NCBI GenBank assembly: GCA_903944345.1
Contig: CAJARJ010000020.1
Coordinates: 18,110 to 82,109, forward strand
Source of the DNA: Candidatus Omnitrophota bacterium
GTDB taxonomy: Bacteria > Omnitrophota > Gorgyraeia > Zapsychrales > Fredricksoniimonadaceae
Length of the DNA stretch: 64,000 bases
Reading direction: 5' to 3'
Shown: in pieces, positions 12,243 to 40,793 of the stretch
Layout: every line of letters begins with the position of its first letter
How positions within the stretch are numbered: position 1 is the stretch's first letter
The notes under the pieces: model-generated
What the model was told of the DNA's origin: nothing
Database searches by the model: none
What the model saw: only the letters and a program-made list of their open reading frames with translations
Translations under genes and position numbers: made by a program

Positions 12243-13136
12243 TCAACCCTTTTGTTTGCGTACCAGAACCCAAAGCACGTTCCGTGGCAATAGCCAATCC
12301 AGCGGCAGAGACACAGCAGCAATGGCTCCTTTGGGAGCAAACGGACGATACAGCCATTGCGGAGTTTTCCTGATCCTCAAGTGACGATACAGGCTCGGGA
12401 TAACCAGCGGGATCGTGTCAAAACCCGAGTCGACAACCGTCAGTCCAAGCTGGCGGCAGAAAGTTTCGACCGATTTCATATCGAAATGCCACAAATGCCT
12501 GGGAGGATCAAGAAAGAAGTTGCAGGCCCCAAAGAGTTTACTCGCCGAAGATGAAATGTCCGGCAGAACTATATAAAAGCTGTTGGCCCCGTGATCGATC
12601 ATTCTGTTTACAAAGACTTCCGGCTCCCTGATATGCTCCAGAACATGCCGTAACACAACCAGTCCGTCTTTCATCCCGGGAAAACCTTCCAGAGAGTAAT
12701 TATTGTAATCAATAGAATAATACGGGATATCCGCGGTTTCCAGTAAACAGGGCTTCTGCCCACAGGAGTCTGCGGCGGAAACCCTGGCTCCGGAGGCGCG
12801 AATAATCCTGGCGAAATCTCCTGTGCCACAGCCGATATCCAGAAACTCGCCGGGTGAAAAACTCCTCCGGATACGGGCCAATTCCCGGCGCAGAAGAAAA
12901 TTCTTCAGAAACAGGTGCAGATCCGAGGTGGCCTGACGCATCATTCCGCCCATTTCATTCTGATAATACTGCGCCAGATCTTCCGGAAACGGCGCGGTTT
13001 TCTTGACCCCGCAGGAATCGCATTCCAACAGGCTAAAAGGTGTTGCGGTCACCAGATCACACGTCTGCAGAAACACCCGGCTAAACCGGCCCTGACGGCA
13101 GATTGGACAAATGCTGTTATCTGTTGCATCGGCCAT
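12243..13136 (-). CDS. Class I SAM-dependent methyltransferase with an N-terminal zinc ribbon
   Basis: CPICRQ...CDSCG forms a CxxC pair. Motif I is LDIGCGTGDFA. Confidence 0.75.
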   Translation of the reverse strand: MADATDNSICPICRQGRFSRVFLQTCDLVTATPFSLLECDSCGVKKTAPFPEDLAQYYQNEMGGMMRQATSDLHLFLKNFLLRRELARIRRSFSPGEFLDIGCGTGDFARIIRASGARVSAADSCGQKPCLLETADIPYYSIDYNNYSLEGFPGMKDGLVVLRHVLEHIREPEVFVNRMIDHGANSFYIVLPDISSSASKLFGACNFFLDPPRHLWHFDMKSVETFCRQLGLTVVDSGFDTIPLVIPSLYRHLRIRKTPQWLYRPFAPKGAIAAVSLPLDWLLPRNVLWVLVRKQKG

Positions 13137-13163
13137 GACTCATACTCCTTGTGCATATCCCTG

Positions 13164-14039
13164 TTATTTATAAAACACCCAGAAAGAAAACCCGATCCAG
13201 CAAAGCACACTTGTTATCAAAGGAAAATCCGCAAGCAGAATTTCGTCAACATCTTCGGTCTTGCCGACAACGTGAACCAGATACAGATATCGAAACACTC
13301 CATAAACAACAAAAACCAGCGAATAAATCATCCAGTAACCATGCACCCTGGCGACTATGTCCGGAGATATTGTGTACAGCCCGTAAAAAACAATAGCCAG
13401 TGTCGCCGAAATCATGATCAGTTGATCGAGAAAATATATCGTGTAGTGCCGTAAAGCGCCCCGGTGCTCCTCTGCTCTGTCTCCCAGCGTTCTCATCTCC
13501 GATCTTCTTTTGGTGAAACCAAGAAAAAGTGACAGCAGAAAGACACAAAGCTGCAGCCACCCCGAGGGGAGAACCCCAACGACTACCGCGCCTGCCCATA
13601 TCCGTATACAAAAACCAAGCGCGATACAGCCCACATCCAGCAATACCAGTTTCTTCCAAAAGAAAGTGTACATAAAATGCAGTAACAGATACAACCCTGC
13701 CAGACAGAAAAACAGGCCACCAAGAAACAGCGAAAGCAGCAATCCGCCGCACACAAGAACAACCCCTAGCAAAACAGCAATGCGTCGGCTGATCCTGCCG
13801 CTGGCAATAGGCCGTTGACATTTCTTCGGATGGGCCCGGTCCCTGTGCATGTCTTCCAGATCATTGACAACATACACCCCGCTGGAGACAAGGCAGAACG
13901 CAACCAAAGCCAGCAAAGCGGACGAAAAAGATGACAGGCTTACAAAGCGGCCGGAAAAAAGAAGCGGCGCCAGAACAAAAAGGTTCTTGATCCACTGTTT
14001 GGTGCGCATTAGCCTGAAAACATCCATCAAAAAACTCAT
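13164..14039 (-). CDS. UbiA-family prenyltransferase, decaprenyl-phosphate phosphoribosyltransferase-like
   Basis: KQWIKNLFVLAPLLFSG and the Asp-rich motif NDLEDMHRDRAHPKKCQRPIASGRIS (NDxxDxxxD followed by RPIASG) resemble the DPPR synthase subgroup. The start is trimmed to the ATG at 14039, which forms an ATGA overlap with the upstream stop and has an AAGGGGGA RBS. Confidence 0.7.
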   Translation of the reverse strand: MSFLMDVFRLMRTKQWIKNLFVLAPLLFSGRFVSLSSFSSALLALVAFCLVSSGVYVVNDLEDMHRDRAHPKKCQRPIASGRISRRIAVLLGVVLVCGGLLLSLFLGGLFFCLAGLYLLLHFMYTFFWKKLVLLDVGCIALGFCIRIWAGAVVVGVLPSGWLQLCVFLLSLFLGFTKRRSEMRTLGDRAEEHRGALRHYTIYFLDQLIMISATLAIVFYGLYTISPDIVARVHGYWMIYSLVFVVYGVFRYLYLVHVVGKTEDVDEILLADFPLITSVLCWIGFSFWVFYK

Positions 14040-15208
14040 TCGTCCCCCTTTTTTGCTCCGGCAGGAACATTTTGAACATAGGACAATATCTCTTTCACTG
14101 CCTGTAGTAAGCGCACGGTAAGTTCCGGCGATCTCAGGCAGGGATACGTCCCATGACATTGCGGAACAGCATAACCAAAGAAAGTACAAGGTGAGCAAAG
14201 AAGACCGGAATCCACAAAAAATGTCCTGGTGTTTTCCGGAGCCCATTTATTCCTGTTCCCTGGACCAAAGACAGCCACAGAAGGAACCGACAATGCCGCA
14301 GCGATATGTAGCAGCCCCGAATCCTGACCGATAAAACAACGAGCCCCGGCGACCAGGGCCACACTTTGGGCCAGGCTGGTCTTGCCGACAAAACTGACCA
14401 CGCCAGGACTCTTCATCTCATCTAATAGCTTCCCCGCGAATACCTTCATGTCCCCGCCTCCGAGCAAGACGACATTCAGTCCACTGTCAATAATCAGTCG
14501 CCCCATCAATACGAGCTGTTCCGAGGAAAAACGCCTAGCCGCGGAACTTCCTCCCAATGCCAGCGCCGCGTACGGCCGGGACAAAGATGCTTTTGCCCAG
14601 GCAATGTCGGGGGCAGAGACAGCATATGATCCTTCCAGATGCAATCTCCCCCGTAACCCCAAAAGGGAAAAAAGCCGGCTAAAATTATGCAGCTCATAAG
14701 CTTCGTGAGAATATTCAACGGCTGTATAAAAAAGACCCGCCCGTTCAGGACGAGTGCCAAAGCCGATCGTCCTGCGGGAGCGAATCAGGCGACTTAAAAC
14801 AGCACTCAGACAGTGCCATTGCTCGGTATCAACAACCCAGTCATATGAATTCCGGCCAACCGCCGTTAACTCACCTAAAACATCGTAACAAAAAATCTGA
14901 CCGCAAAGTCCGGGCTGCGAACGAAATACAGCCACGTTCCTCTTTTCGCACAAAATGTCAAGTGTGTGTCCCCCACGCTTTAACTCGCGCAGGACTGGCA
15001 ACAGCAAAACCGCATCCCCAATACCGCCAGGCCGAATAATCAGAACTTTCATCGGGCCCGAGGGAAGAACGGAAGAATCCGTCCGACTCCTCCCTAAACA
15101 ACGACAAACAATGGATCCCAGGGTGTGATCAAGCAGCTTGATCCCTTTAAGCGGCCAGCTCCCCTGCGAACGAAAAATATCCCACAGAGTAATCGGCCTC
15201 ATAAACAA
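14036..15208 (-). CDS. Glycosyltransferase family 9 (heptosyltransferase-like)
   Basis: The supporting motifs are KVLIIRPGGIGDAVLLLPVLRELK and GQDSGLLHIAAALSVPSVAVFGPG. Confidence 0.7.
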   Translation of the reverse strand: MFMRPITLWDIFRSQGSWPLKGIKLLDHTLGSIVCRCLGRSRTDSSVLPSGPMKVLIIRPGGIGDAVLLLPVLRELKRGGHTLDILCEKRNVAVFRSQPGLCGQIFCYDVLGELTAVGRNSYDWVVDTEQWHCLSAVLSRLIRSRRTIGFGTRPERAGLFYTAVEYSHEAYELHNFSRLFSLLGLRGRLHLEGSYAVSAPDIAWAKASLSRPYAALALGGSSAARRFSSEQLVLMGRLIIDSGLNVVLLGGGDMKVFAGKLLDEMKSPGVVSFVGKTSLAQSVALVAGARCFIGQDSGLLHIAAALSVPSVAVFGPGNRNKWAPENTRTFFVDSGLLCSPCTFFGYAVPQCHGTYPCLRSPELTVRLLQAVKEILSYVQNVPAGAKKGDE

Positions 15209-15217
15209 GAAACCATC

Positions 15218-16693
15218 TTAATCTCCCAGAAGAACACGGGGCAGTTTATGCGTGAGCAGTCCGCGAACATGGTCAAGGGTTGGCTGGCCAAACTTGCGCA
15301 GAATCATATCCTGATAACGGGAAGAACCAAAATACTGCATAAAAGCATTGTCCCGAAAACGCAGAATCTCGGCGGAAGAAAGATATTTGCTGGGCAGCGG
15401 AACCGTATGCCGGTTAAATTGAGAATAACCCTCCCAGCAGGAGGGCAAAGGCAAAGCGTCGCGCACTGCCGTATCATACAAAGCCGCCCCTGGATAAGCC
15501 ATGGTCACATAAAAATTGGCATATTCGCAGTTAAGTTCAACAGCCAGATCCAGAGTCTCCTGCATGGTCGACATATCATCGTCCGGCAGACCAAACATGT
15601 AATTACCAATCACATGAATGCCCGCCTCGTTGGTTTGACGAATGACCTGAAGAATCTTTTCCCGGTCGAATCTTCCCTTGGCAACCCCTTTACGTACTTC
15701 CGTGTTGGCCCCCTCAATGCCATAGGCAATCCAGCGCACGCCCGCGCGAAAAAGTTTACGGAGAATATTTTCATTAACGGTATCAATACGCGCATACACC
15801 CAGATATTAATATCGTATTTGCGCTCGGCCAGACCCAGGCAAACCTCGTCCATCCGGCGGGGATTGACCACAAAAAGCTCGTCAACAAACTTGAAATTTC
15901 TGACCCCGTATTTCCTAACCAGAAGATCAATCTCCTCGAGAACCTTGCCGGCAGAACGAAAACGAATTCCCCCCCCGCCGTAAAGTGCATGAATATTGCA
16001 GTAACTGCAGTTGTAGGGACATCCCAGGCTTGTGTAAACCATGGCATAGGAAGCCCGATCCTCAAGATGCCCGAAACAATGCCAGTTATGCGCGCGGTAA
16101 CGATCCATCGGCAAAAGATCCCAGGCCGCCAGAGGCAGAACATCCAGATCCTGAAGCTGCCGGGCCCAGCCCCGGTCAACAACCTTATCATTCTGCTTAT
16201 ACCAGAGCCCCTGAATGTTACCCGTATCCCCGCCATTCCTGAAGGCCATGACGAGGTCGGTAATACACAAAAATGTTTCACCCCGGCAAAGAAAATCTAC
16301 CGGCTCTTCCCGTAGGGTGCGTTCGGGAACACCGGAAGGATGAATCCCGAAAATAACCGAACGGACATTAGTGGACTGTTGGCGCAGTTCTTCAAGGACA
16401 GCGCGCACCGCCGGCATTTTGGGTGTCGAGGAAACACTTGGGTTGCCGCCTATGGCCCCCACGGCACACAAAAGCGGTTGAAGTTCCACCGCCCGGCGCA
16501 CAGCTTCCCGCGGCCCGAGTTGTTGGGCATCCGCATCAATAATCGCAACCGTAAGCCCGCGCTCGCGCAAATAGGCAGCCAGCAAAGCCAGCCATAAAGG
16601 TGTCTCAACGGCGGCATACTCATTGGCCAAAGCCCCGTAGATCGGCTCCTTGCCGCCGGGATTGACAAGAACAACATCCAGCGGAGATCCCAT
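15218..16693 (-). CDS. B12-binding-domain radical SAM enzyme
   Basis: VVLVNPGG...PLWLALLAAYLRERGLTVAIIDA is the B12-binding-type N-terminus. The radical SAM motif is LGCPYNCSYCN. Confidence 0.8.
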   Translation of the reverse strand: MGSPLDVVLVNPGGKEPIYGALANEYAAVETPLWLALLAAYLRERGLTVAIIDADAQQLGPREAVRRAVELQPLLCAVGAIGGNPSVSSTPKMPAVRAVLEELRQQSTNVRSVIFGIHPSGVPERTLREEPVDFLCRGETFLCITDLVMAFRNGGDTGNIQGLWYKQNDKVVDRGWARQLQDLDVLPLAAWDLLPMDRYRAHNWHCFGHLEDRASYAMVYTSLGCPYNCSYCNIHALYGGGGIRFRSAGKVLEEIDLLVRKYGVRNFKFVDELFVVNPRRMDEVCLGLAERKYDINIWVYARIDTVNENILRKLFRAGVRWIAYGIEGANTEVRKGVAKGRFDREKILQVIRQTNEAGIHVIGNYMFGLPDDDMSTMQETLDLAVELNCEYANFYVTMAYPGAALYDTAVRDALPLPSCWEGYSQFNRHTVPLPSKYLSSAEILRFRDNAFMQYFGSSRYQDMILRKFGQPTLDHVRGLLTHKLPRVLLGD

Positions 16694-17559: not shown

Positions 17560-17597
17560 CGAATGGGGATTATATCACGAAAAACATTCTTGCTGCG

Positions 17598-20500
17598 TCA
17601 TCTTGTTTCTCTTTTAAGAGGCCGCAGGAAAAAGACCCGTTCCCCAAAGACCACCTCAACCGCGTGTGCTGCCTGCACATCCGTCAGAGTAAAAAGCCAC
17701 GTCCCGTTATCGTAGGTCAACGCCACCCCTTTGCCATCCACAAGAACGTATTTGACCGACTGCCCGGCTTCCGGAGTCAGACGAAACGTCACGGATTCTC
17801 CTCTGGGAACATTCTGCACGCCGGAAGGCTCAATGGTTCCAGGACCGCTAACCGTTGGCGTCACCGCGAAAGTGATCGAAACAGTCACTTGCCCGCTGAC
17901 TGTCCCGCCGATTCCGCTGCAAGTCAAAGAATAAACTGTTGTCGATTCTGTGGGCGTCACTTCCTCCGTCCCGGCAACAAGTTTGGCTCCTGACCAGCCA
18001 CCACCAGCTGTGCAAACCGTCGTATTGGTAGATTCCCAGACCAACGATGAAGATTCCCCCGGATCGACATTCACCGGATTGGCTGTAAAACTGAAAGTGG
18101 CCGGAATCGCAGTAAAAACAGCCGTGATAGTCTGATTGGATTGCACGTCACTGAACGTATAAGAACTGTTCGTTCCAACCGAAACTCCGTTAACAAGAAC
18201 GTCTTCTATACGATACCCCTCATCCGGCGTCACTGTAAAGACCTGACTTCCCCCTTCAGCGACCGTTGTCGTATCCGGAGCAATCGTTCCATTTGCCCCC
18301 TGGGTAACAGTCAAGGTAAACATGCGCGGTGTAACCGCGACTTCCAAAGACTCGGTATCCGTACCGCCCGGGCCGGAACAGGCCAGGGTGTAGGTGCTAT
18401 TCTGGGCAACAGTGACCGCCTCGGATCCGGCAATGGCCTTTGCCCCAGACCAGGCACCACCGGCGGTACAAGTCGTTGCAGACGTCGAAGCCCAGCTGAG
18501 AGTGGTCACATCCCCCGTAACTACAGTCAAAGGGTTAGCAGAAAAACTGACAACCGGAGCCGGAATCACAATCGAAGAAAATGACGCCGTAATCTGGTGA
18601 TCTTCTTGAACATTCATAAAAGTAAATAAAGAAATCGCGCCCTGAGATACACTGTCCACCTGAACATCTGTCACCTGGTACCCGGCATCAGGAGTAATCG
18701 TGAACGTCTGATCATTGCCCTCGAGCAGCGCAGTTGTTCCCGGGGCAATCACGCCATTATTTCCCTGGGTAACCGTCAGATTATAAACAGGAATATTAAC
18801 CGTAAGCGCAAACGTCTGCTGACTCGAAGTGCTATACCCCGTGCAGGTCAGCGTGTAATTGGCGGTTCCGGCTGCAGAGGGAGTCACCGTCTGTGTCCCC
18901 GCCGTTGCCTTGCTGCCTGACCAGTCTCCGCTAGCCGTACAACTATTAGCATAAAGGGTGGACCAGGTCAGAATCGAAGATTGCCCGACCGAAATTGTTG
19001 CCGGAGCCCCGGAAATTGTAATGACCGGTGCCGGAACAGGGATCAACGAGAAAGAAGCCGTGATGGCGTGATCGGCCTGAACATTGGTAAAAGTATAGGA
19101 GTCAACGGCTCCGAACGAAACTCCATCCACCAGCACATCCTGCACCTGATAACCAGCCTGCGGAGTCATGGTGAATGTTTTGTCGGTCCCGGCTGTAACA
19201 GCGGTTGTACCCGGAGAAATCACGCCATTAGCCGACTGGGTTACCGTTAAGGTATGCGTTGCCGGCGTAACCGTTACCGTAACCATATCCGCGCCCGCGC
19301 CCCCGTCTCCATTGCAAGTCAACGTATAACTGGCGGTGACAGCAGGGGAAACCACCTGGGTGCCAGATGTGGCTTTTGCTCCCTCCCAGGCCCCGCTGGC
19401 CCCGCAAGCATTGGCGTTCGTCGTGGTCCAGCTCAGTGTGGAGGAACCGCCCCCAATAATCCCCTCCGGAGTTGCCGTCAAAGTAACTGTCGGTGGCAAC
19501 GGGGCAAACGTTGCTGTAAGTGTATGATTGGACTGGACATCGCTAAAAGTATACTGATTGGCCGATCCTTCGGGAATGCCGTCCGCAATCACGCTCCCGA
19601 TCCGGTACAAAGGATCCGGAGTAATCGTAAATATCTGACTGGCTCCGTCTACGACAGTGACCGTACCGGGAGAAATCGTTCCGTTAGATCCTTGCGCAAC
19701 ACTCAAGGTATAATTGACAGTCCCCACTGTTACTCCGGCATTTACAGCTGTTGACCCTCCTGGGCCGTAACAAGTCAAGGTATACTGAGCGGTTGCTGCG
19801 GGGACAACGGGATGAGTTCCTGCTGTCGGTTGGAATCCCGCCCAGTCGCCGCTGGCCACACACAGTGTCGCATAATTCGTGGACCAAGTCAGGACTGAAG
19901 AGCCTCCTTCGAGAATATTGACCGGGCTGGCCGAAAAAGTGAGCTGCGGTGGAATCGGCGCGAAAACCGCGGTAATACTCGAATCCACCCTGACATCGGG
20001 AAAAGTATACGAAGTCAGAGACCCGACCGAAATTCCATTAACCAGAACGTCCTGAACCAGATAATCAGCATCGGGGGTAATGGTAAACGTCTGACTACTG
20101 CCTCCGGATACCAGCACTGTACCAGGAGCAATAGTCCCGTTGTTCCCCTGAACCACCTCGAGAGTGAACGTACGCGGATTAACCGTAACCGTTACCGTTT
20201 CGGTATCCGTGCCTGATGGGCCCGTACAGACCAAAGTATACGTTGCGGATGCAGCCGGAGTCATAATAGCCTCCCCGCCGACATCTTTCGTTCCGGTCCA
20301 GGAACCACTGGCCGTGCAGGCGGTGGCATCCGTAGCCGACCAGGTAAGAGTAGAGGAATCCCCGGCAATAATAGTGGCTGGTGCGGCGGTGAAAGTTAAT
20401 ACCGGTGCCGGCGGCGGGATCAAGGAAAAAGAAACCGCAATGGTATGGTTCGCCTGAACATTAGAGAAAATATAAGTCGGAGATGTCCCGACAGATACCC

Positions 20501-23500
20501 CATCGACCAATACATCTGCAATCTGATAACCGTTGTGCGGTGTCATTGTGAAGGTCTGATCCGTCCCCGCATTGACCGTTATCGTGGCTGGTGAAATATC
20601 TCCGTTAGTCCCCACGGTAGCCGTAAGTAAATATGTTTTGGGCTGAACAGTAACCGAAACGCTGGCATTGTCCGAACCGTCCGGTCCCGTACAGGTCAAA
20701 GTATAGGTTGCAGCAGCCGCAGGAGTGACCGCTTCTGACCCCGCAATATCCCTTGCGCCGGACCAGTCCCCGCTGGCCGTACAAGCCGTAGCGTCCGTCG
20801 TCGACCAGGTCAGGGTGGCAAAGTCCCCGGCGATAATAGTCAAAGGATCAACAGTCAATACGATCTCGGGAGGCGTCAGGGGAATCAGGGAAAAAGAAGC
20901 CGTAATACTACGATTCGCCCGCACGTTGGTGAAAGCATACTCGCTCACAGCCCCGCGGGATACTCCATCCACCAGCACATCCTGAATCTGATAACCGCTA
21001 TCCGGCGTGATTGTAAAGACCTGGTCAGCCCCGGCGTCAAGCGTGAGCGTTCCGGGAGAAATCGTGCCGTTATTTCCCTGGGTTACAGTCAGAGTATACG
21101 TCAACGGCTGAACAGTCACTGTCGTTGAATTCTCCCCGCTGCCGCCGGCACCGGTACAAGTCAATGTGTACGTTTCTGTTTGCGCCGGTGTAAGCGTAGC
21201 CGTTCCTGTTGTCGCTCTGGATCCGGTCCATCCTCCGCTGGCCGTACAGGCCGTAGCATCAGTAGCCGACCAGGTCAGGGTGGTTGATTCTCCGGTATAA
21301 ATCGTGGACGGACTGGCTGAAATGCTAACAACCGGCGGCACAACCGGGATCAGGGAGAAAGAAGCCGAAAGCGTATGATCAGCAGAAATATTCGGGAATG
21401 TATACGAAGTTATCGAGCCTTGGGAATTACCGTCCACCAGAACCGCCTGCACCTGATAACCGCTATTGGGTGTTATGGCAAACGTGGGAGAACTGCCGGC
21501 CGCCACGGTCGTCGTTCCGGGTGAAACACTGCCATTGGAGCCCGCACTCACGGTCACGGTATACTCAACAATTTCTTCGGCAACTGTCACCGGAATGGCC
21601 GCAGAAGTGGTCTGTGCTCCATTATTATCAGTCACCTTCAGCCGGGCCACGTAATTACCCAAAGCCGCGTAGGTATGCTGGACAATAGGATTAGTAGCAT
21701 GCGCTGACCCGTCGCCAAAGTCCCAATCATAAGAGGCGATGTTACCATCGGGATCATACGAGTCGGTTCCCACAAAATCGACCACCAAAGGTGGCTCGCC
21801 CGAGGAAGGGAGCGCCGTACCTCTTGCTATCGGAGGAGTATTGGTTCCGGCAAACGTATACGTGATCTTGCTGTAATTGCTGTTGTTATCGATGCTCAGC
21901 GGTAAACCCGTGGCTGAAGACAAAACCGCCATACTTTCCGGATTCAGAAGTGCAAAACTGCTTACTTGAAGAGGACTCGCCGAAGTGTTGTCTACCAAAA
22001 CAAGATAATAATCTTTGGACGTTGTTGTTGCCGGCAGTAGATCGGTAAAATCAAAAAGGAAATCGCCGCTCATCGCAGTCGTCGTTCCGTTAAAAGCATA
22101 ATCCCCACCCTGATAATACAGCGCCCCCGGATACCATTCGGTACGAGTGGAATACGCTGCCCCGGCATCGGCAATCGCCAGTGCCACTTCAATCTGCTGG
22201 CGCTTGGCATGATTCAATGTAAATTTCCCGACCAGCTTGGGCACATAAGTTCCCCCTGATCTGACCGTCATGGCAAAAATTTGCTGTCCTGTAAACATGG
22301 GTTGTCTTCCGGAAGAAGGGCCTCCGCTCACCTGTGTAATCGGCCGAAGCGCATCATAGGACACCCACACAAACCCGCTGTTGCCCCAACTGGTGCCCCA
22401 GGAATTGGCAATTTTGAAAGCTCCCAGTTCATTGGCATCCAGAGTCGAATTGCCATTGACATCAATCCATAAATTATCATTGTATCCGACTATAGTAATG
22501 AAATGACCGCCATCCTGACCATTCTGCCAGGAAATCGCTTCCTGACCAATATAGCTGTTGTCATCCGTCGTAGCCGGATTATCGCGCACTGTGGTCATCA
22601 CCCAGGAATAGGCATAAGTGCCCCCTGTAAGAACATAACCATTATTCAAAAGTTTCTTGACCAGCAACATGCCTTCGTTTGTGCCGACATTATCCACATA
22701 AACAGCCGTATTTGCCCGGGCTTTAAGCGCTTCCCGCCAGGTGGCAGCATCGGTCACCCAGGGAAGATAACTGCTGTCATAAGGAACCAGCGACCAGACA
22801 GGCGCCCCGTGCTGAAGCATCAAAATATAGGCATGAACCGCATAACTTCCGCCATCCGCGCCACCATTGATCATATTGTAAATAAATTTGGGAGAATACT
22901 TGGTCGAATTATCCGCGTTATTGATCGCAATATTTTTTTCGCGGGCGATCATGTAAGACAACTGATAATAGCCGGCGGCAAAAGCCACACAGGAACCAAG
23001 CAAGCCTTGATCCCTGATCGGAGGGAACCATTGCAAAAGACTGTTGTCGGCAGAAAGAGGAAGCGAGGCCCCGACAAGATCGGAGACGGAAGCCGCATTA
23101 TAATTTAAAATACCGGTTGAAGCAGGCGAACTCACAATATCGTCAGCGGTGCTCTCAATCTCCTGGCCAGAAGTAATTGCCAACGCCGAGGGCAAAAGGG
23201 GACGGCGTTGCTGCTGCAAATGAGCATTGACACGCTGCAGTCCAAACGCATTAAGCCTGACATTGGTGACCCGATTGAAACTTTTACGTATGCGGGCTTC
23301 TTCCTCTATTGAATACTTCATCCCGGTCTTGAGGTTCGGATGTGTCTTTGGAGTGTATTTATTGCGGACTGTATTAAGTGTGACAACCTGTGCGCAAGCT
23401 AGCTCGGAGGAACCGCCACCTCCCAAACGCGCCAGCGGAAAACCAGCCGTGAGCAGACAAGAAAAGATCAGCAAACAACGTAATATAGCACCGGGTTTCA

Positions 23501-23540
23501 GCATAATCTTTCTTTCTGCTCCCCAAGAGTTTATAAACAC
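17598..23540 (-). CDS. Giant secreted multidomain protein with a papain-like (C1) cysteine peptidase, a beta-sandwich, a PKD domain and about 8.4 copies of an (InlB-B-repeat-like plus two-Cys Ig-like) unit
   Basis: A signal-like segment is present (LRCLLIFSCLLTAGF). The catalytic residues are in context: Gln/Cys in RDQGLLGSCVAF (Cys184), His in GGHFITIVGY (His346) and Asn in ANSWGTSWGNSGFVWVSY. The PKD motif is DPDGNIASYDWDFGDGS. The ORF-track start is a GTG at 23540; an ATG at 23504 (MLKPGAIL) is an alternative. Confidence 0.85.
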   Translation of the reverse strand: MFINSWGAERKIMLKPGAILRCLLIFSCLLTAGFPLARLGGGGSSELACAQVVTLNTVRNKYTPKTHPNLKTGMKYSIEEEARIRKSFNRVTNVRLNAFGLQRVNAHLQQQRRPLLPSALAITSGQEIESTADDIVSSPASTGILNYNAASVSDLVGASLPLSADNSLLQWFPPIRDQGLLGSCVAFAAGYYQLSYMIAREKNIAINNADNSTKYSPKFIYNMINGGADGGSYAVHAYILMLQHGAPVWSLVPYDSSYLPWVTDAATWREALKARANTAVYVDNVGTNEGMLLVKKLLNNGYVLTGGTYAYSWVMTTVRDNPATTDDNSYIGQEAISWQNGQDGGHFITIVGYNDNLWIDVNGNSTLDANELGAFKIANSWGTSWGNSGFVWVSYDALRPITQVSGGPSSGRQPMFTGQQIFAMTVRSGGTYVPKLVGKFTLNHAKRQQIEVALAIADAGAAYSTRTEWYPGALYYQGGDYAFNGTTTAMSGDFLFDFTDLLPATTTSKDYYLVLVDNTSASPLQVSSFALLNPESMAVLSSATGLPLSIDNNSNYSKITYTFAGTNTPPIARGTALPSSGEPPLVVDFVGTDSYDPDGNIASYDWDFGDGSAHATNPIVQHTYAALGNYVARLKVTDNNGAQTTSAAIPVTVAEEIVEYTVTVSAGSNGSVSPGTTTVAAGSSPTFAITPNSGYQVQAVLVDGNSQGSITSYTFPNISADHTLSASFSLIPVVPPVVSISASPSTIYTGESTTLTWSATDATACTASGGWTGSRATTGTATLTPAQTETYTLTCTGAGGSGENSTTVTVQPLTYTLTVTQGNNGTISPGTLTLDAGADQVFTITPDSGYQIQDVLVDGVSRGAVSEYAFTNVRANRSITASFSLIPLTPPEIVLTVDPLTIIAGDFATLTWSTTDATACTASGDWSGARDIAGSEAVTPAAAATYTLTCTGPDGSDNASVSVTVQPKTYLLTATVGTNGDISPATITVNAGTDQTFTMTPHNGYQIADVLVDGVSVGTSPTYIFSNVQANHTIAVSFSLIPPPAPVLTFTAAPATIIAGDSSTLTWSATDATACTASGSWTGTKDVGGEAIMTPAASATYTLVCTGPSGTDTETVTVTVNPRTFTLEVVQGNNGTIAPGTVLVSGGSSQTFTITPDADYLVQDVLVNGISVGSLTSYTFPDVRVDSSITAVFAPIPPQLTFSASPVNILEGGSSVLTWSTNYATLCVASGDWAGFQPTAGTHPVVPAATAQYTLTCYGPGGSTAVNAGVTVGTVNYTLSVAQGSNGTISPGTVTVVDGASQIFTITPDPLYRIGSVIADGIPEGSANQYTFSDVQSNHTLTATFAPLPPTVTLTATPEGIIGGGSSTLSWTTTNANACGASGAWEGAKATSGTQVVSPAVTASYTLTCNGDGGAGADMVTVTVTPATHTLTVTQSANGVISPGTTAVTAGTDKTFTMTPQAGYQVQDVLVDGVSFGAVDSYTFTNVQADHAITASFSLIPVPAPVITISGAPATISVGQSSILTWSTLYANSCTASGDWSGSKATAGTQTVTPSAAGTANYTLTCTGYSTSSQQTFALTVNIPVYNLTVTQGNNGVIAPGTTALLEGNDQTFTITPDAGYQVTDVQVDSVSQGAISLFTFMNVQEDHQITASFSSIVIPAPVVSFSANPLTVVTGDVTTLSWASTSATTCTAGGAWSGAKAIAGSEAVTVAQNSTYTLACSGPGGTDTESLEVAVTPRMFTLTVTQGANGTIAPDTTTVAEGGSQVFTVTPDEGYRIEDVLVNGVSVGTNSSYTFSDVQSNQTITAVFTAIPATFSFTANPVNVDPGESSSLVWESTNTTVCTAGGGWSGAKLVAGTEEVTPTESTTVYSLTCSGIGGTVSGQVTVSITFAVTPTVSGPGTIEPSGVQNVPRGESVTFRLTPEAGQSVKYVLVDGKGVALTYDNGTWLFTLTDVQAAHAVEVVFGERVFFLRPLKRETR
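17650..21566 (-). repeat. In-frame tandem coding repeat, with a period of about 465 nt (about 155 aa) and about 8.4 copies
   Basis: Nine copies of the A module (YTLTVTQGNNGTISPG...ITASF) alternate with eight copies of the B module (TLTWS.TDATACTASG.W.G...YTLTCTG). Nucleotide strings such as cgaccaggtcagggtgg recur at about 460-nt spacing (for example about 20800 and 21260). Confidence 0.8.
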
Positions 23541-23642: not shown

Positions 23643-23696
23643 AAAAAAATAAACACCGCCTCTGCCTGACGCTTTTACGCCAAACAGAAGCGGTGT
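23643..23696 (-). terminator. Rho-independent terminator downstream of gap
   Basis: On the minus strand an 11-bp stem (CACCGCTTCTG / CAGAGGCGGTG, one mismatch) is followed by TTTATTTTTTT. It lies 54 nt after the gap stop. Confidence 0.55.
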
Positions 23697-23749
23697 CTGA
23701 TCTTTGCCAACTGAAAGGAAATTACATCACAGGAACAAAACCTGCGAAT

Positions 23750-24856
<1,107 letters not shown>

Positions 24857-24992: not shown

Positions 24993-26270
24993 TCAGAAAT
25001 TAATCAGCAAGCCCGTGCTTTCGCTCAAAGGCTGCTCAAAATAACTCCCGCGATTTTCTTTGTACGAGTTTTCTGCCAGCAGACGAGCCCGGACAACGTC
25101 GGCAGAGCCTGACAGACGGCCCAGCATGTCCTTGTAAACAGCAGGGAAATACTCTTCTTCCCGGGCTGCAACAAGCACGGCGCGCAAAACCTCCCGCTTG
25201 TTTTCAATAATCGATCGATAGGCTTGCGGTAACCGCGGCAACAACAAACAATGCTCCAGGTAATTAATGGCCCGGATATAGACCTGCCGGGCCTCTGCCA
25301 GAGCCAGATGCGAAGAAAGCACCAAAACACGTGCTTCGCGAACAGAATCGGGCAGCATGTCCAACTGCGCCAGGATCCTGTCAGTAACCGGCACCCCGGG
25401 CAGAGACAAACGGATCAGCTTGCCCTCCGAGACCCGCCCGTCGAGCGAAAAATCTTCTGCCGCCTTCTGCCAGAGGGCGACAAACTCCTGCCGCGCCTCC
25501 GCGACAACAGAGGCAAAGGAACGTTTAGGAAAAACTTCGCTGATATCATTGGCTGTGATCACCACTTCCCCGCTGAGCGCGGCGACCTTGTCACCCTCAT
25601 TAAGCTGTGGAAGTCCCAGCAGTCCCACCGCATCACGCACAACATGCACTGACCTACGCCCGTCTTCAAGCGTCCCGGCATCCTGAATGCAGGGCAGAAA
25701 TGAAAACGGCGCTTTGACCTTGCGACAATCGCCAAGCGCCCGCATCAATCCGTTATCCTGCCTGGCCAGCAGACATTCCCGGACTGAAAGCTTGCGCAAG
25801 CGTTCGTTCAGGTTATCAGAGGGTAAATCCAGCCTTAATAGTCCCAGCTCTTCCAGCAACAAGCTCTGCATGGACTGTGTCCGGTAATGTTTAACAATAT
25901 CTGCCAGCGCGGGACTGGAATACGACAAACGCAACAGGTCATACGCACTGACCGGAACCTTATCCAGCAGGCGTCGGGATAAAAGAGGCCGCAGCCCCTC
26001 CTCAATTTCCTGCCGGAACGCCAGCTCACGATCGTCCAGGCGTACCGGCCGCAGCAGCGGGCCAGTCGAAGCCTTGTCCAGCTCGCTCACTTTGGCTTGG
26101 TGCTGTGCGCGGTCAAGGCCCGGTGTCCGATAATAACAAAACCCCCGGTCGTCAATAACCGCCTTGCGTAAACGGGTATCCGCAGGCGCGTCCGGTGCAA
26201 AAATATCAGCGGCCGCCGGCACTCCCACCAAAAGCAGAACCAGAGGGAACCATCTTAGAACAAACAGCAT
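24993..26270 (-). CDS. Secreted protein of unknown function, last gene of the Tra/Pil operon
   Basis: The signal peptide is MLFVLRWFPLVLLLVGVPAAADIF. The start at the ATG at 26270 has a GGAG RBS and overlaps the traU stop by 16 nt. I recognise no motif. Its size and position next to the TraU-like gene recall the PFL_4711-type partner in ICE T4SS, but this is unverified. Confidence 0.5.
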   Translation of the reverse strand: MLFVLRWFPLVLLLVGVPAAADIFAPDAPADTRLRKAVIDDRGFCYYRTPGLDRAQHQAKVSELDKASTGPLLRPVRLDDRELAFRQEIEEGLRPLLSRRLLDKVPVSAYDLLRLSYSSPALADIVKHYRTQSMQSLLLEELGLLRLDLPSDNLNERLRKLSVRECLLARQDNGLMRALGDCRKVKAPFSFLPCIQDAGTLEDGRRSVHVVRDAVGLLGLPQLNEGDKVAALSGEVVITANDISEVFPKRSFASVVAEARQEFVALWQKAAEDFSLDGRVSEGKLIRLSLPGVPVTDRILAQLDMLPDSVREARVLVLSSHLALAEARQVYIRAINYLEHCLLLPRLPQAYRSIIENKREVLRAVLVAAREEEYFPAVYKDMLGRLSGSADVVRARLLAENSYKENRGSYFEQPLSESTGLLINF

Positions 26271-27157
26271 TCTTTCTGTCTCCAATAAATCCAGACATAA
26301 CTGCCGTCCGCCGAACGCCGGCCGTTCTCCCACAGATCCGCCTGCTCTCCGACGCGCAAGCAACGGCTCTTTGACGGAAAGACCATCTGCAACCGATCCC
26401 TCAATTTGTCTGGCGAGAACATGGCCGGCACAATAATCCGATGCGGAACCAGCATGTTCAACGAAGCAATATCCACCGCCCGGTAGGCTGCCACGGCCGA
26501 GCCGACGGCCTCGCTATAATGAACCAGCTGTCCGGTCCGCGGAAACAACGGCCCCCAGCTGCCCAGACATGCCACAGCCGACAAAGGATGCAGGAAGTTC
26601 TCACACACCGGCCCGGCTGCGGCCAGAAGACGCGCCAGAGGATGCCCTGCTTCCCCGCGACCAACGCGCCACTCGGCAGCGTCAATCTCACTTAAATAGG
26701 ACAATGGCCCCGCAAGATCCGGGGGCCCCTCGCACGGCGCCAGAATAAGAGCAGACACCTGATCAGATAAAGGAAAACCGTAAACATGAACATCGTTCAT
26801 TTGCAAGGCCGTGGTGTCGGAGGCGTACGCGCTCCCGCTGTCGGGAGCGGCCTGACATTCCGCCGCCGCAGTAATGGTCTTGTTCCCCAATGACTGCAAA
26901 AACTTTCCCGCCAACGGACGCAATTCGTCAATCATGACCCGGCCCGGCATCTTGACGGTCTCAACAAGCAAGACCGGTTGACGGTAACGCACTCGCACCC
27001 CCACAAAAGGAGGAGTCGACCGCCGACAAACACCGATCACACGAAAATCCACACAATCCAGATCAGCGCGTAATGCCAGCGTGGACAGACTCTCAGCGCA
27101 GACAGGTACGGACAGCACAAGCCATATCAGCACAGAAACATTTATTACCCGGAACAT
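26255..27157 (-). CDS. traU: TraU-like conjugative T4SS periplasmic protein
   Basis: It has a signal peptide. YLSEIDAAEW compares with F TraU YLSEIDPTW. The C-terminal YVWIYWRQKECCLF compares with F TraU GYLMWRKRNCVFL. An AGGAGAG RBS is present. Confidence 0.75.
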   Translation of the reverse strand: MFRVINVSVLIWLVLSVPVCAESLSTLALRADLDCVDFRVIGVCRRSTPPFVGVRVRYRQPVLLVETVKMPGRVMIDELRPLAGKFLQSLGNKTITAAAECQAAPDSGSAYASDTTALQMNDVHVYGFPLSDQVSALILAPCEGPPDLAGPLSYLSEIDAAEWRVGRGEAGHPLARLLAAAGPVCENFLHPLSAVACLGSWGPLFPRTGQLVHYSEAVGSAVAAYRAVDIASLNMLVPHRIIVPAMFSPDKLRDRLQMVFPSKSRCLRVGEQADLWENGRRSADGSYVWIYWRQKECCLF

Positions 27158-27178
27158 AAGAGCTCTCCTGCCGGAACA

Positions 27179-28102
27179 TCAGCCGCAACGAATGATCCAG
27201 AACATGGCCAAAGACGGCTGCATATTATTGTGCGCCTGGCCGCCCCCAGCGTTTTCTGTCGGATGAAGATATGGCACCGCCGGAATATTGTCATAATCCA
27301 GCGACTCCGCGTTCCCTTGCGCTGACCCGCCCCACCCCTGATTCTCGCTGAAAGTGTAATCATACATATTATGCTTGTGAGCGGGCATTTCCGGGATCGT
27401 CAACACATGCATCTCTGCCCCCAGCCGGCCACCTAGTACCGATGCTGACGGATGACTAACCACATTCGCCGCACTGCCCGTCATATTGTCCATTCCAATG
27501 GGCACGCGTCCCCGAAGGTCAGGCAAGGCAAACGTACTTGTTCCGTCTCCAGCACCATAAACTGTACCGATCAACGCAAACAAAAGAGTGTACTGCTCAC
27601 GTGAAATCGTCCGGCCGTCGCAAGGCAACCAACCCTCAGGTATTGTCGTGCCGGGCCAGGGGATCATGCTGCCAATCGGAAGGGCGGCATCAGGATCCTG
27701 GGCAAAACCGATATCCGACTGCACCCGGCCGTCTTGAACAACGCTTATTGGTGTCATACGCGCAACAAAGGCGGACAGCTGCGCAGGAACTTCTGTCTCA
27801 AGCATCATCCCGGCCCCCGATGAAGATAAAACATACTGACCTCCAAAAGGGTTTTTGCCCTCCCACGCCGCAGGCATATAGCCACCCTCCCTTAAATTTT
27901 GCCAATTCTGCGGCCAGACATGCTCTTTACGCTGAAATGCCCTGACAGCCTCGGTGATCCGCCCTATCTCCGCGACCGTGATGCGGGCAGCCTCAAGCTG
28001 GACACCGCGCAGAACACCGGGCACAACAATACTGACCAGAAGCCCCGCAATCAGCAGAGAAATCGACAGCTCAATCAGAGAAAATCCCTTGTCCGACCCC
28101 AT
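27179..28102 (-). CDS. Minor type IV pilin fused to a phage tail-collar (MdpB-like) domain; putative tip adhesin
   Basis: The class III signal is MGSDKG|FSLIELSISLLIAGLL. The C-terminal half reads GWLPCDGRTISREQYTLLFALIGTVYGAGDGTSTFALPDLRGRVPIG...MPAHKH...GGGQAHNNMQPSLAMFWII, which is the Collar/MdpB signature. A GGAGGTGG RBS is present. Confidence 0.8.
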   Translation of the reverse strand: MGSDKGFSLIELSISLLIAGLLVSIVVPGVLRGVQLEAARITVAEIGRITEAVRAFQRKEHVWPQNWQNLREGGYMPAAWEGKNPFGGQYVLSSSGAGMMLETEVPAQLSAFVARMTPISVVQDGRVQSDIGFAQDPDAALPIGSMIPWPGTTIPEGWLPCDGRTISREQYTLLFALIGTVYGAGDGTSTFALPDLRGRVPIGMDNMTGSAANVVSHPSASVLGGRLGAEMHVLTIPEMPAHKHNMYDYTFSENQGWGGSAQGNAESLDYDNIPAVPYLHPTENAGGGQAHNNMQPSLAMFWIIRCG

Positions 28103-28110
28103 ACCACCTC

Positions 28111-28551
28111 CTAGAAAGTCGCCAGCCAGGTTTTGGCCCCTGCGTCATAGGAAAGTGTTTCCGCTTTCCCCCGAAACAATCTGGAAAGACCAGCCGCAGC
28201 ATTATCCGGCACACTCGAAAGCGCAATGTCCACCCGGGTGCGATCCGCTGTATTTGCGTTCACCCGATAATCACCGCCATAACTGTTTGCCCCCGTCGGG
28301 TCAAACGTAGCGGGCAAATACCCGGAACTCTTCATGGCTTCGATACTAATACCTTCATACGTCAGACTCATCACCGACAGATAGTTTTGCGCTGCCAGAC
28401 GCAGGTTATCAACCGACTGGGCCTCTCTTTGCAGACGTGCCTGCGCAGCCATCCCCCCTCCAGCACTAATCATGCCGACGAGCATGGCAATAAGTCCCAA
28501 TGCAATCGAAAGTTCAACAAGAGAAAAACCATCATTTTTGTTTACTCGCAT
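28111..28551 (-). CDS. Type IV pilin (probable major subunit)
   Basis: It has the prepilin leader and N-methylation motif MRVNKNDG|FSLVELSIALGLIAMLVG. It also has the strongest RBS of the operon (AAGGAGGAGCGG-ATG). Confidence 0.8.
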   Translation of the reverse strand: MRVNKNDGFSLVELSIALGLIAMLVGMISAGGGMAAQARLQREAQSVDNLRLAAQNYLSVMSLTYEGISIEAMKSSGYLPATFDPTGANSYGGDYRVNANTADRTRVDIALSSVPDNAAAGLSRLFRGKAETLSYDAGAKTWLATF

Positions 28552-28582
28552 CCGCTCCTCCTTTTTTATTTTAAAACACCCC

Positions 28583-29662
28583 TCATGGGTGCATCATCCC
28601 TATATTTGCCAGATTCCCATACAGCGGCCTGAAAAAGGCAAAAACCAGCAACGCCATCACCCCCGCACACAGAAGGATCAACGCCGGCTGCAAAAAATCA
28701 ACAACCCGCTTGACCCGGGACTCCAGAGAACGCCGGCATAGCTGGTAACCCCGGAAGAAATACTCGTCAAGGCATCCGGATAACTCCCCGACTCTAAGAG
28801 TCTCGCCAACCCAGGAAGGGAAATACGCATCCTGCAAAAACGCGGACGACAGCATCTGCCCGCTGACCAGTCTGGTCCGGCAAGAATTCATGTGATAACG
28901 AGTCCGGCCTCCCGACGCGACAGCTGCCTCCGCCAGAGATTCATCCAGAGTAATTCCGCTTTTAAGCATCAACGACAACAGAAAAAATCCCATGGCCAGC
29001 TCCCGATCCCGAATCAGTCGCCCCACAAAAGGACACCGGGCCTGCCAGCCCGAGAACACAAGCGGCTCGGTTCTTTGCACCAGCCAAAGTCCGCCAACGA
29101 TAAGTAAGACAATTCCCAGCCAAAACGGCCACTGCATCCTCACTGTGCAAGCCAGACGCAACATGCCCCCGGTCAAAGGCCCGGAAAAAGTGCTCTGCGG
29201 CAAAAGGCTGCCCAGCCGCGGAACAATCTCGAACGAAATATAACCGGCAACCAAAAGCAGAATGACCAGCACAAACAAAGGATATCCCATAGCTCCAGCC
29301 AGCTGATGTCCTACCTCGTCGCTGGCATGGTAATATTCCGCCAAAGCCCGGGCTGAACGGGAAATTTGTCCTGCCTTGCCGGCAGCGTTGAGTGCGCGCA
29401 AGGCACATTCTTCGAAAATACCGCACTCCCCCATGGCCTGCCCAAGAGACAAGCCCCGGTCAAGGGAACGAAGCATATGCGCACAGGCCCGCGCCAGCGT
29501 CCGGCTTCCGGAAGCCCCTTCGAGGCAGCGCAGCGCGGCACCAAGCGAGAGTCCGGCAGAAAGCATGTTGGAAAGATCTTCGAAAAAGAACGCGGCCTCA
29601 GCCGCCGACAGCTTCTGCCCGGAATAGAATATCCTTAACCAAGAACCCTGACCGCTTCGCAT
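28583..29662 (-). CDS. Type II secretion / type IV pilus platform protein (GspF/PilC family)
   Basis: It has two repeats of the T2SSF pattern (FFFEDLSNMLSAGLSLGAAL; FFLLSLMLKSGITLDESL) and three TM blocks. The start is set at the ATG at 29662, which has a GGAAGGAG RBS; the ORF-track start at 29854 would overlap the ATPase gene by 220 nt. Confidence 0.8.
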   Translation of the reverse strand: MRSGQGSWLRIFYSGQKLSAAEAAFFFEDLSNMLSAGLSLGAALRCLEGASGSRTLARACAHMLRSLDRGLSLGQAMGECGIFEECALRALNAAGKAGQISRSARALAEYYHASDEVGHQLAGAMGYPLFVLVILLLVAGYISFEIVPRLGSLLPQSTFSGPLTGGMLRLACTVRMQWPFWLGIVLLIVGGLWLVQRTEPLVFSGWQARCPFVGRLIRDRELAMGFFLLSLMLKSGITLDESLAEAAVASGGRTRYHMNSCRTRLVSGQMLSSAFLQDAYFPSWVGETLRVGELSGCLDEYFFRGYQLCRRSLESRVKRVVDFLQPALILLCAGVMALLVFAFFRPLYGNLANIGMMHP

Positions 29663-32188: not shown

Positions 32189-32210
32189 ACCTTCCCTCTC
32201 TCAACAGACA

Positions 32211-37723: not shown

Positions 37724-37725
37724 CT

Positions 37726-40507: not shown

Positions 40508-40793
40508 CCTGGCCTTCCTTGCTATAAATGCTGTAAAAACGCTCGGGCCCCGGCGGCAGCAATCCTCTGAAGCCAACTCCCTGCCGGTACAGCCAATGAA
40601 TCAGATATCCTTCCGGTTTCCCGCGCTTGAACGCGGCCAGACATGGCCAGATGAAAAACAACGCGATCAACGGAACTGCCGGAGAAAACACAATTGCCGG
40701 TACCCCGCACAATAAAAGAATCACAGCGACATCTTCACCCTCAAGGCCCAGAATAAGAAGAGGCCGGTCAATTGTTCTTGGACACGGTTTCAT
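40497..40793 (-). CDS. traL: TraL-like (VirB3 analogue) small membrane protein
   Basis: It is 98 aa. The pattern IDRPLLILGLEGEDVAVILLLCG fits the TraL pattern (xxD.P..ilG...de followed by a TM). It lies directly after the pilin gene. Confidence 0.6.
   Translation of the reverse strand: MKPCPRTIDRPLLILGLEGEDVAVILLLCGVPAIVFSPAVPLIALFFIWPCLAAFKRGKPEGYLIHWLYRQGVGFRGLLPPGPERFYSIYSKEGQDVF

Follow-up and report, generated by a model that had tools for sequence, protein, structure and literature searches.

A predicted secreted papain-family protease carrying a long array of alternating beta domains in an Omnitrophota bacterium

Protease gene and its neighborhood

The window, a stretch of 64,000 nucleotides from a Candidatus Omnitrophota bacterium, carries on its minus strand a large open reading frame at positions 17598 to 23540, which has the 1,980 codons claimed in the first-pass annotation when counted from a GTG; the plus-strand reading of this interval is full of stops, which places the gene on the minus strand. 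The likely product is shorter, with 1,968 aa counted from an ATG at position 23504, and initiation at the upstream GTG (23540) is improbable: the Met encoded at 23504 is common to an 86%-identical ortholog and to public gene calls, and coding conservation does not reach into the upstream extension. Two residue numberings are therefore in use, one from the GTG (Q178, C184, H346, and N379 for the catalytic residues) and one from the Met (Q166, C172, H334, and N367). JGI's name for exactly this protein is "C1A family cysteine protease/PKD repeat protein". The gene and its neighbors are as follows.

17560..17597, minus strand: spacer of 38 nt to the MTHFR gene, containing GTGATATAAT
17598..23504, minus strand: protease gene, 1,968 aa from the ATG start in the gene calls of public assemblies, stop codon at 17598-17600
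23652..23697, minus strand: predicted intrinsic terminator after gap, with a 20-bp stem and a T-run (-42.5 kcal/mol, z = -7.4)
23750-24811, minus strand: gap, between the protease gene and the Tra/Pil cluster
from 24993, minus strand: Tra/Pil cluster, ~1.45 kb from the protease gene

This layout, with gap intervening and all genes on the same strand, agrees with the first description of the locus. The terminator is predicted to insulate the protease gene from gap and the Tra/Pil cluster. No match to a sigma-70-type promoter was found upstream of the protease gene, and a weak, conserved promoter-like element, TTGTAC-N18-TATGCT, was recognized by eye only. On the other side of the gene, the GTGATATAAT extended -10 element also precedes MTHFR in relatives without the protease gene. 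In two relatives (L104 and L100), gap directly adjoins MTHFR, with no protease gene between them, so that the protease gene was probably inserted at this site as an accessory gene specific to the lineage. An NCBI Omnitrophota metagenome-assembled genome (MAG) encodes a GAPDH with 94% identity to the one here, a protein too conserved for firm taxonomic placement; the same MAG also has the rmlACDB...gap gene order, which adds support for a probable Omnitrophota lineage.

Protease head and its family

The domain order of the protein is a signal peptide, a folded pro-region, a papain-fold domain, a beta-sandwich, a PKD domain, and nine A modules alternating with eight B modules. Residues in the list below are in Met numbering, except for the catalytic residues, which are numbered from the GTG.

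23391..23504, minus strand: Sec-type signal region, with a basic n-region, a hydrophobic core (residues 4-25), and the conserved motif LACA↓Q (residues 35-39)
23088..23357, minus strand: pro-region, with a small folded alpha/beta unit (residues 50-122) and a disordered linker (residues 123-139)
22305..23087, minus strand: papain-fold catalytic domain (Peptidase_C1), from Pfam, alignment, and fold
23007-23009, 22989-22991, 22503-22505, and 22404-22406, minus strand: codons of Q178, C184, H346, and N379, respectively
21852..22298, minus strand: family-specific beta-sandwich directly after the catalytic domain (NHAKRNQ...GGxYAFNGTTT...DFTD)
21582..21842, minus strand: PKD domain, from Pfam and fold search
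17868..21569, minus strand: stalk A1-B1-A2-...-A8-B8, 16 alternating beta domains
17643..17867, minus strand: A9, a divergent terminal A module
17601..17642, minus strand: C-terminal tail ERVFFLRPLKRETR, identical in the 86%-identical ortholog and matching no known sorting signal

The N-terminal segment is the sole hydrophobic segment of the protein, and typical signal peptides are present in family members. Where the signal peptide is cleaved is ambiguous, since use of LACA↓Q would imply an unusually long c-region. Judging from the sequence, the protein is predicted to be exported beyond the cytoplasm. Its Cys residues comprise two in each B module, the catalytic C184, which is the only Cys of the head, and three within the N-terminal 37 residues; an extracytoplasmic location fits because each B module carries one Cys pair, which is expected in oxidizing surroundings. 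A pro-region had been suspected in residues 50 to 165, and this segment contains the small folded alpha/beta unit and the disordered linker. The unit is specific to the protease family, across which its motif TGL...NxLGxxRxN is conserved, and it is not a Pfam I29 propeptide, as no match was found to the cathepsin propeptide inhibitor I29 (PF08246) or, in residues 1 to 160, to any Pfam family even at an E value of ≤10.

The catalytic domain matches Peptidase_C1 (PF00112) over residues 172 to 395 with 24.9 bits against a gathering cutoff of 20.7, and it has the two-lobe papain fold. A complete C1 catalytic set had been proposed for this domain, and the four residues indeed align at the numbers given, with Q178 and C184 in DQGLLGSCVAF, H346 in GGHFITIVGY, and N379 in ANSWGTSWGNSGF. 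DQGLLGSCVAF, which has the Q-x5-C context, aligns with RQQGSCGSCWAF of Blo t 1, DQGYHGSCVTFA of Lpg2622, and KDQALCGSCWAF of falcipain-3; GGHFITIVGY aligns with AGHELVITGY and NHAVILVGY at the position of papain His159; and ANSWGTSWGNSGF aligns with RNSWGTGWGNGGY, covering papain Asn175 and the following Ser-Trp. Among 41 aligned family members, H334 and N367 are invariant and Q166 and C172 are conserved in at least 90%. The 86%-identical ortholog retains every catalytic residue, and the ratio of nonsynonymous to synonymous substitution (dN/dS, omega) is 0.07 in the protease domain. The intact Gln/Cys/His/Asn set predicts an active thiol-dependent peptidase.

The beta-sandwich always follows the catalytic domain in the protease family. 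It has no Pfam model and no sequence relative in the PDB, and a PDB profile search gave chance matches only. The resemblance to a proprotein-convertase P domain noted in the first-pass annotation was not borne out, since neither a profile nor a structural match to this domain (PF01483) was obtained. The PKD domain, in contrast to the P domain, was recovered as claimed: PKD_4 scores 69.8 bits, above the Pfam threshold (69.8 and 48.5 bits for the PKD models PF18911 and PF00801), and in the fold search the domain matches the PKD domain of collagenase ColG with 40% identity and a TM score of 0.9.

The family to which the head belongs is large, with no fewer than 558 loci among the GTDB species genomes, spread over many phyla, and with ~40% identity (36% to 45% over ~88% of the first 554 residues, the best GTDB representative having 45%). 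Its taxa include Omnitrophota, Planctomycetota, Desulfobacterales, Bdellovibrio, Aminicenantes, and Myxococcota. To our knowledge, no member of this head family has been studied so far. The 1,968-aa protein is the longest seen, as the 72 complete members checked range from 553 to 1,294 aa. None of these 72 has B modules, and a single one (L009, from Planctomycetales) has A modules, in five copies; C-terminal PKD, FN3, Big_7, malectin, or PPC domains are usual, with no anchor, and most members resemble soluble secreted enzymes that end in FN3/PKD-type domains. The signal peptide, the pro-region with the TGL motif, the papain domain, the beta-sandwich, and often the PKD domain are shared with uncharacterized bacterial and archaeal C1A peptidases annotated as "C1 family peptidase / PKD domain-containing protein", to which the protein described here adds the (A-B)x8-A array. 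It is thus a member of a widespread, uncharacterized bacterial protease family that carries an unusually long rod here and not a new kind of system.

Alternating array and C-terminus

The nine A and eight B modules described in the first-pass annotation could all be delimited by motif and alignment, including the two invariant Cys of each B module. The A module (~71 aa) is Flg_new_2/InlB B-repeat-like, and the B module (~82 aa) is Ig-like. The whole array, (A-B)x8-A, has 17 domains and 1,309 residues, so that about two-thirds of the protein consists of an Ig-like rod. The Pfam search that had been suggested recovered all of Peptidase_C1, PKD_4, and Flg_new_2 (PF18998), the last with 86.8 bits and six stretches above the threshold, and a profile built from the nine A copies recovers all nine. 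The predicted structure of an A-B-A unit is all-beta with a pLDDT of 96.7, and it matches the strings of Ig-like domains in Dscam, titin, and the GhpA grappling hook. Calling this array a stalk is our reading of the sequence, by which an extended rod of ~65 nm (17 × about 4 nm) would be formed.

Single B modules, the beta-sandwich, and the pro-region gave only faint PKD-, invasin D3-, or DUF-type noise against Pfam at an E value of ≤10, and NCBIfam gave nothing on the whole protein or on its termini. Pfam matches of the full protein to MlaC, ThiI, and DLEC1 had no passing stretch or fell below the cutoff, and they were taken as spurious because the same matches recur on unrelated A-array proteins. 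A literature search for Flg_new_2 by name found nothing. Neither Pfam nor NCBIfam has a curated model for the very large Ig-like family, with some 24,000 representative proteins, to which the B module belongs. A-only and B-only arrays are common elsewhere and exist as stand-alone secreted proteins, and a metagenome scan with the single protein found A arrays only. Among the proteins searched, strict A-B alternation occurs only in this protein and its ortholog; the A-B arrays in hundreds of proteins suggested by a first stalk homology search were A-only arrays aligned across B.

Constraint is strongest in the last 89 residues, which comprise A9 and the tail (dN/dS, 0.033). The basic C-terminal tail is present as had been described (ERVFFLRPLKRETR), and the absence of an anchor or sorting signal is upheld: no Pfam or NCBIfam match to LPXTG, PEP-CTERM or other x-CTERM, the T9SS CTD, SLH, CWB2, or an autotransporter barrel was found in the whole protein, and the last 29 or 89 residues match no anchor or sorting signal at an E value of ≤10. 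There is no C-terminal transmembrane helix, with no hydrophobic segment beyond the N terminus, and no lipobox, as Cys 16 and Cys 37 lack the canonical L-[AS]-[GA]-C context and FF precedes position 16 in the ortholog. Many A-only array proteins end in an A module, so a terminal position alone does not make such a module an anchor.

Proposed function and alternative explanations

We propose, with a probability of about 0.55, that the protein is an exported latent (zymogen) endopeptidase of the papain family, the head of which is held far from the envelope on a long spacer by A9 and the tail. The pro-region would keep the enzyme inactive until the linker is cut, and the 17 domains would form an extended titin-like rod. 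Misfolding between repeats would be limited because the alternation of two unrelated folds keeps neighboring domains dissimilar. The conserved last module and the basic tail would hold the C terminus on the envelope non-covalently; no known anchor or sorting signal is present, and this tethering is suggested by conservation. The head would thereby be presented far from the cell and may cut proteins on particles or on neighboring or prey cells. The top Foldseek match is Cwp84 of Clostridioides difficile (PDB 4ci7 and 4d59), a cell-surface C1 protease in which a propeptide and a papain domain are followed by a "lectin-like" beta-sandwich and C-terminal surface-attachment repeats; the C1 domain matches and the beta-sandwich may be equivalent, whereas the CWB2 wall-binding repeats are absent here. 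The SasG/Aap G5-E, Rib-domain, GhpA, and titin strings of small beta domains form long extended rods, as proposed here, and the G5-E array of SasG is also an alternation of two module types. Unlike the SasG/Aap, Rib, and GhpA stalks, the present array consists of other module families (Flg_new_2 and the unmodeled two-Cys Ig-like domain), lacks an LPXTG or T9SS signal, and carries a protease instead of an adhesive tip as its functional head.

Multidomain C1A peptidases are common in bacteria, and none found in this analysis is more extended than the one encoded here. A survey of the papain family in 2023 explicitly set such peptidases aside (PMC10380794). With a well-understood catalytic head and a rod that can be dissected domain by domain, the protein offers a convenient case in which to study how uncultivated, possibly host-dependent bacteria may place degradative enzymes away from the cell, and it flags two reusable parts, the abundant two-Cys Ig-like repeat without a Pfam or NCBIfam model and the family-specific beta-sandwich after the protease. 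Its value lies in annotation and as a biochemical candidate, and current understanding is not overturned.

Less probable, but to be taken seriously, is a freely released soluble protease in which the 17-domain array would be a multivalent module for binding to insoluble material (for example, detrital protein, S-layers, or surfaces coated with glycans). In collagenases and chitinases, PKD and CBM-type domains play a substrate-binding role, and the PKD domain here is closest to those of collagenases. Xylellain and Lpg2622 are both soluble enzymes, the latter a substrate of type II secretion. These two proteins, from Xylella fastidiosa (PDB 3ois) and Legionella pneumophila (PDB 6a0n), are the closest solved bacterial relatives and fit a soluble enzyme, as do the missing anchor and the anchorless C-terminal domains of family members; unlike the present protein, they are small and single-domain, without a beta-sandwich, PKD domain, or stalk. 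However, 17 domains are far beyond the other members checked, no carbohydrate-binding family was detected in the A or B modules, and the very strong conservation of the final 89 residues speaks for a specific role of the terminus, not for a generic binding array.

A bolder version of the tethered-protease reading seems doubtful to us as a whole: a "protease on a pole" at the surface of an Omnitrophota cell, probably ultra-small and possibly predatory or epibiotic, in which A9 and ERVFFLRPLKRETR would be a novel short C-terminal retention module, the active head would use its ~65-nm reach to attack the surface proteins or S-layer of neighboring or prey cells, and the A-B alternation would be a newly evolved misfolding-resistant rod.

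It is unlikely that the protein is primarily a surface fibril or adhesin whose protease serves only for self-processing or release or is catalytically dead. The large share of the Ig-like rod and the stand-alone secreted A-only and B-only arrays point in this direction, but at least 558 genomes encode the head as a conserved unit of its own, its catalytic residues are intact and identical in the ortholog, and the protease domain is under strong constraint.

Still less likely is a role of the protease as cargo or an accessory of the Tra/Pil (type IV pilus/conjugation-like) cluster, exported by or mounted on it. The cluster lies close by on the same strand, an arrangement kept in the 86%-identical strain, and, according to a preprint, Omnitrophota have T2SS-like loci upstream of giant extracellular proteins (bioRxiv 10.1101/2023.11.21.568195). 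The proximity nevertheless does not point to a functional link: the housekeeping gene gap and a strong terminator intervene, the signal region is an ordinary N-terminal one, and the relatives with gap beside MTHFR have neither the protease nor the cluster. Moreover, a T2SS/Tra homolog (a T2SSE homolog) lies within 8 kb in only 1 of 79 family loci, and TraU, TraC, TrbI, a secretin, or T2SSF lies within this distance in none.

An assembly artefact, in which the assembler expanded or misjoined the repeats of a shorter gene, might be suspected in a repeat-rich gene from a metagenome and is effectively refuted: the A and B copies are only 49% to 67% identical in DNA (about 58%), with a longest exact repeated word of 23 nt and a divergence too great for Tandem Repeats Finder, which reported no arrays; five assemblies recorded separately (in ENA and Logan) carry the same 5,907-nt gene without a difference; and the ortholog is collinear with zero indels. 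Against this ortholog, the overall dN/dS is 0.11, with purifying selection over the whole length.

Gene model and protease head

The protease gene is a single uninterrupted ORF of 1,980 codons:
17598-23540, minus strand, predicted exported papain-type (C1) protease with a PKD domain and a putative repeat stalk

Plus-strand coding in this interval was ruled out, since the frame is full of stops. In public records of the identical sequence, the gene is called from ATG 23504, and an 86%-identical ortholog shares this Met but differs in the extension upstream of it; the 1,968-aa form is therefore likely the product. The catalytic motifs and numbering in the first-pass annotation were exact (Q178, C184, H346, and N379 in the 1,980-aa numbering). 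It had also allowed that these residues might not align with the C1 triad; in a PDB sequence search, the Gln/Cys, His, and Asn-Ser-Trp motifs align with those of Blo t 1, Legionella Lpg2622, and falcipains. Across a 41-member family alignment, the His and Asn never vary, and conservation of the Cys and Gln is 90% or more. Three Pfam families score above the cut-off, and they are the ones expected at first pass.

Pfam families in the protease protein (score; cut-off)
Peptidase_C1: 24.9 bits; 20.7 bits
PKD_4: 69.8 bits; 27 bits
Flg_new_2: 86.8 bits; 23.6 bits

An AlphaFold2 model of the head region, built from the 41-member alignment, has a mean pLDDT of 88.5.

Regions of the AlphaFold2 model (Met numbering, 12 lower than the 1,980-aa numbering)
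Signal region: helix
19-48: disordered stretch
50-122: folded alpha/beta unit
123-139: disordered linker
Up to about 400: catalytic domain
About 420-552: beta-sandwich
After the beta-sandwich: PKD domain

All of the sequence and fold criteria tested place the predicted protein in peptidase family C1. Searching with its first 554 residues identified 227 relatives at an E value of ≤0.001, the best 120 of which are about 36 to 44% identical, most over >80% of the query, and mostly 600 to 950 aa long. Among the matches listed, relatives are annotated as "C1 family peptidase" or "PKD domain-containing protein" and come from Planctomycetota, Desulfobacterales, Bdellovibrio, Prosthecobacter, and Bacillota. 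The GTDB species genomes contain no close copy, the best match being 45% identical, and 72 complete family members from these genomes range from 553 to 1,294 aa, which makes the protease protein the longest seen by about 50%. The C1-head family is also found in archaea of the Thermoproteota at 39 to 42% identity (loci L029, L020, L025, and L064), including the complete chromosome of "Ca. Methanosuratincola verstraetei" (L029; CP186953.1, 8001-9863), and this distribution suggests transfer between bacteria and archaea. The protein falls within a large clade of secreted, multidomain C1A peptidases of bacteria that has gone unstudied; JGI already labels the protein "C1A family cysteine protease/PKD repeat protein," and a 2023 survey found multidomain C1A forms to be numerous and left them unanalysed (PMC10380794). 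The C1A family itself is known; the new features are the predicted rod of 1,309 residues, (A-B)x8-A, the conserved cap at its end, and the insertion site.

An alternating array with a constrained end

Nine A modules (about 71 aa) and eight B modules (about 82 aa) alternate strictly as first annotated, and the array ends with a divergent A9 followed by a 14-residue tail. An assembly expansion of fewer repeats, the other doubt raised at first pass, is contradicted by the divergence of the copies, which average 47 to 49% identity in protein and 58 to 59% in DNA (maximum, 67%). The longest exact repeated DNA word within the gene is 23 nt, and Tandem Repeats Finder reported no tandem arrays in it. 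Five assemblies recorded separately in ENA and Logan carry the 5,907-nt gene in identical form (0 mismatches), and the ortholog from a related strain is collinear, with no indel across 1,968 residues and the same layout. One assembly (ERZ18659389 scaffold_2882; L005, 1-300) ceases to match the window at about 25297, inside ORF 24993-26363, reflecting either a strain variant at the Tra/Pil cluster edge or a chimeric contig end.

The model of A2-B2-A3 is all beta (pLDDT, 96.7) and matches strings of Ig-like domains, including Dscam, titin I-band fragments, and the GhpA grappling hook. The A modules correspond to Pfam Flg_new_2, and no Pfam or NCBIfam model matches the B modules:
17868-21353, minus strand, B modules, consensus L.W....A..C.ASG.W.G...G.....P....YTL.C.G, about 82 aa

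A profile of the eight B copies matches 23,874 representative proteins (2,529 at an E value of ≤1e-30), in which B arrays reach 47 copies per protein; several of these proteins have no other recognisable domain. Modules were counted with profiles built from the protease protein in four sets, namely, 240 proteins listed by two homology searches, the best 149 B-containing representatives with the protein's own cluster left out, 79 family loci, and 11 metagenome loci. Among these sets, strict A-B alternation is restricted to the protease protein and its ortholog. The idea that A-B arrays are common elsewhere was rejected, as alignment shows that the matching proteins carry A-only arrays. In the 79 family loci, the B profile found no B modules in other members, and a single member, a 1,214-aa Planctomycetales protein (L009), joins a C1 head to five A modules. 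Two ERZ1370068 contigs (L090 and L096) carry dozens of Flg_new_2 modules over three forward frames and >10 kb, a pattern resembling one giant A-array gene that frameshift errors in a long-read assembly have disrupted.

The only hydrophobic segment of the protein is N-terminal, and family members have ordinary signal peptides. Beyond residue 37, the protein has only the catalytic Cys and eight conserved Cys pairs, one per B module, a pattern that fits an oxidising extracytoplasmic location. As noted at first pass, no anchor or C-terminal sorting signal is evident: Pfam, NCBIfam, and sequence inspection revealed no LPXTG, x-CTERM, T9SS, SLH, CWB2, barrel, or canonical lipobox. The dN/dS ratio relative to the 86%-identical ortholog is 0.11 overall, 0.07 in the protease domain, 0.04 in PKD, 0.12 in the stalk, and 0.033 in A9 plus the tail. 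Because no known anchor was found, the ortholog has exactly the same tail, ERVFFLRPLKRETR, and the strongest constraint falls on the segment of A9 plus the tail, we tentatively favour a C-terminus that would retain the protein on the cell non-covalently. Other A-array proteins mostly stop right after an A module and lack this tail. The chief alternative is that the enzyme is released freely and uses the array to bind substrates. We infer export, zymogen activation, rod geometry, and tethering alike.

Probable insertion site and the Tra/Pil cluster

Upstream of the protease gene, gap (23750-24811) comes first, followed by a cluster encoding TraU, pilins, T2SSF, T2SSE, secretin, TraC, TrbI, and TraE; the downstream genes are those for MTHFR, a B12-radical SAM enzyme, a GT9 heptosyltransferase, UbiA, and a methyltransferase. 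A terminator follows gap (20-bp stem plus T-run; -42.5 kcal/mol; z, -7.4). In two relatives (L100 and L104), one with 96% and the other with 94% identical GAPDH, gap is directly followed by MTHFR (69 to 70% identical), preceded by the extended -10 element GTGATATAAT in L100 and TGCTATAAT in L104; here, GTGATATAAT lies within the 38-nt spacer 3' of the protease stop codon. The simplest reading of this arrangement is that the protease gene is a lineage-specific insertion between the gap terminator and the MTHFR promoter, the alternative being its deletion in the relatives. Other relatives have integrase or resolvase remnants after gap. In L102 (11219-13325) and in L105 and L106 (11870-14510), such fragments and a Laminin_G_3 protein replace the protease 3' of gap, and this flank of gap is apparently a hot spot for accessory DNA. 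Among named relatives, the best GAPDH match (94%) is from an NCBI Omnitrophota MAG, in which the gene order rmlA-C-D-B ... gap is the same as in the window; the source organism is accordingly probably a member of Omnitrophota, with moderate support. The source records carry the label BUCK21-1, which probably denotes the Buck et al. 2021 dataset from stratified lakes.

A possible cluster for modifying envelope lipids or glycans lies in two parts of the window:
12243-16693 and 7689-9134, minus strand, possible envelope modification cluster

Its genes encode two B12-binding radical SAM enzymes, a GT9 heptosyltransferase, a UbiA prenyltransferase, a methyltransferase, and a YfhO-like membrane protein. 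Between this strain and the related one, the GT9 is just 65% identical, whereas its neighbours are 85 to 95% identical. Together with the secretin, the GT9 heptosyltransferase points to a diderm envelope.

The cluster beyond gap is a hybrid of F-type conjugation-like and type IV pilus/T2SS components:
about 24993-42344, minus strand, Tra/Pil cluster (TraU, TraC, TrbI, and TraE with secretin, T2SSE, T2SSF, and pilins), flanked by gap and rmlACDB
27179-28102, minus strand, pilin-like protein within the cluster

A functional tie between protease and cluster is unsupported: in 1.08 Mb searched, a T2SSE homolog lies near 1 of the 79 family loci, and the other components lie near none. A preprint on Omnitrophota reports that giant extracellular proteins have T2SS-like loci upstream of them (bioRxiv 10.1101/2023.11.21.568195), which is a lead only. 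Because the cluster is absent upstream of gap in L100, it probably represents a second lineage-specific insertion. The ORFs scanned included no relaxase. The pilin-like protein carries an N-terminal prepilin methylation motif fused to phage tail Collar and Gp10 C-terminal-like domains, which makes it a type IV pilin whose tip is of the phage tail-fibre type.
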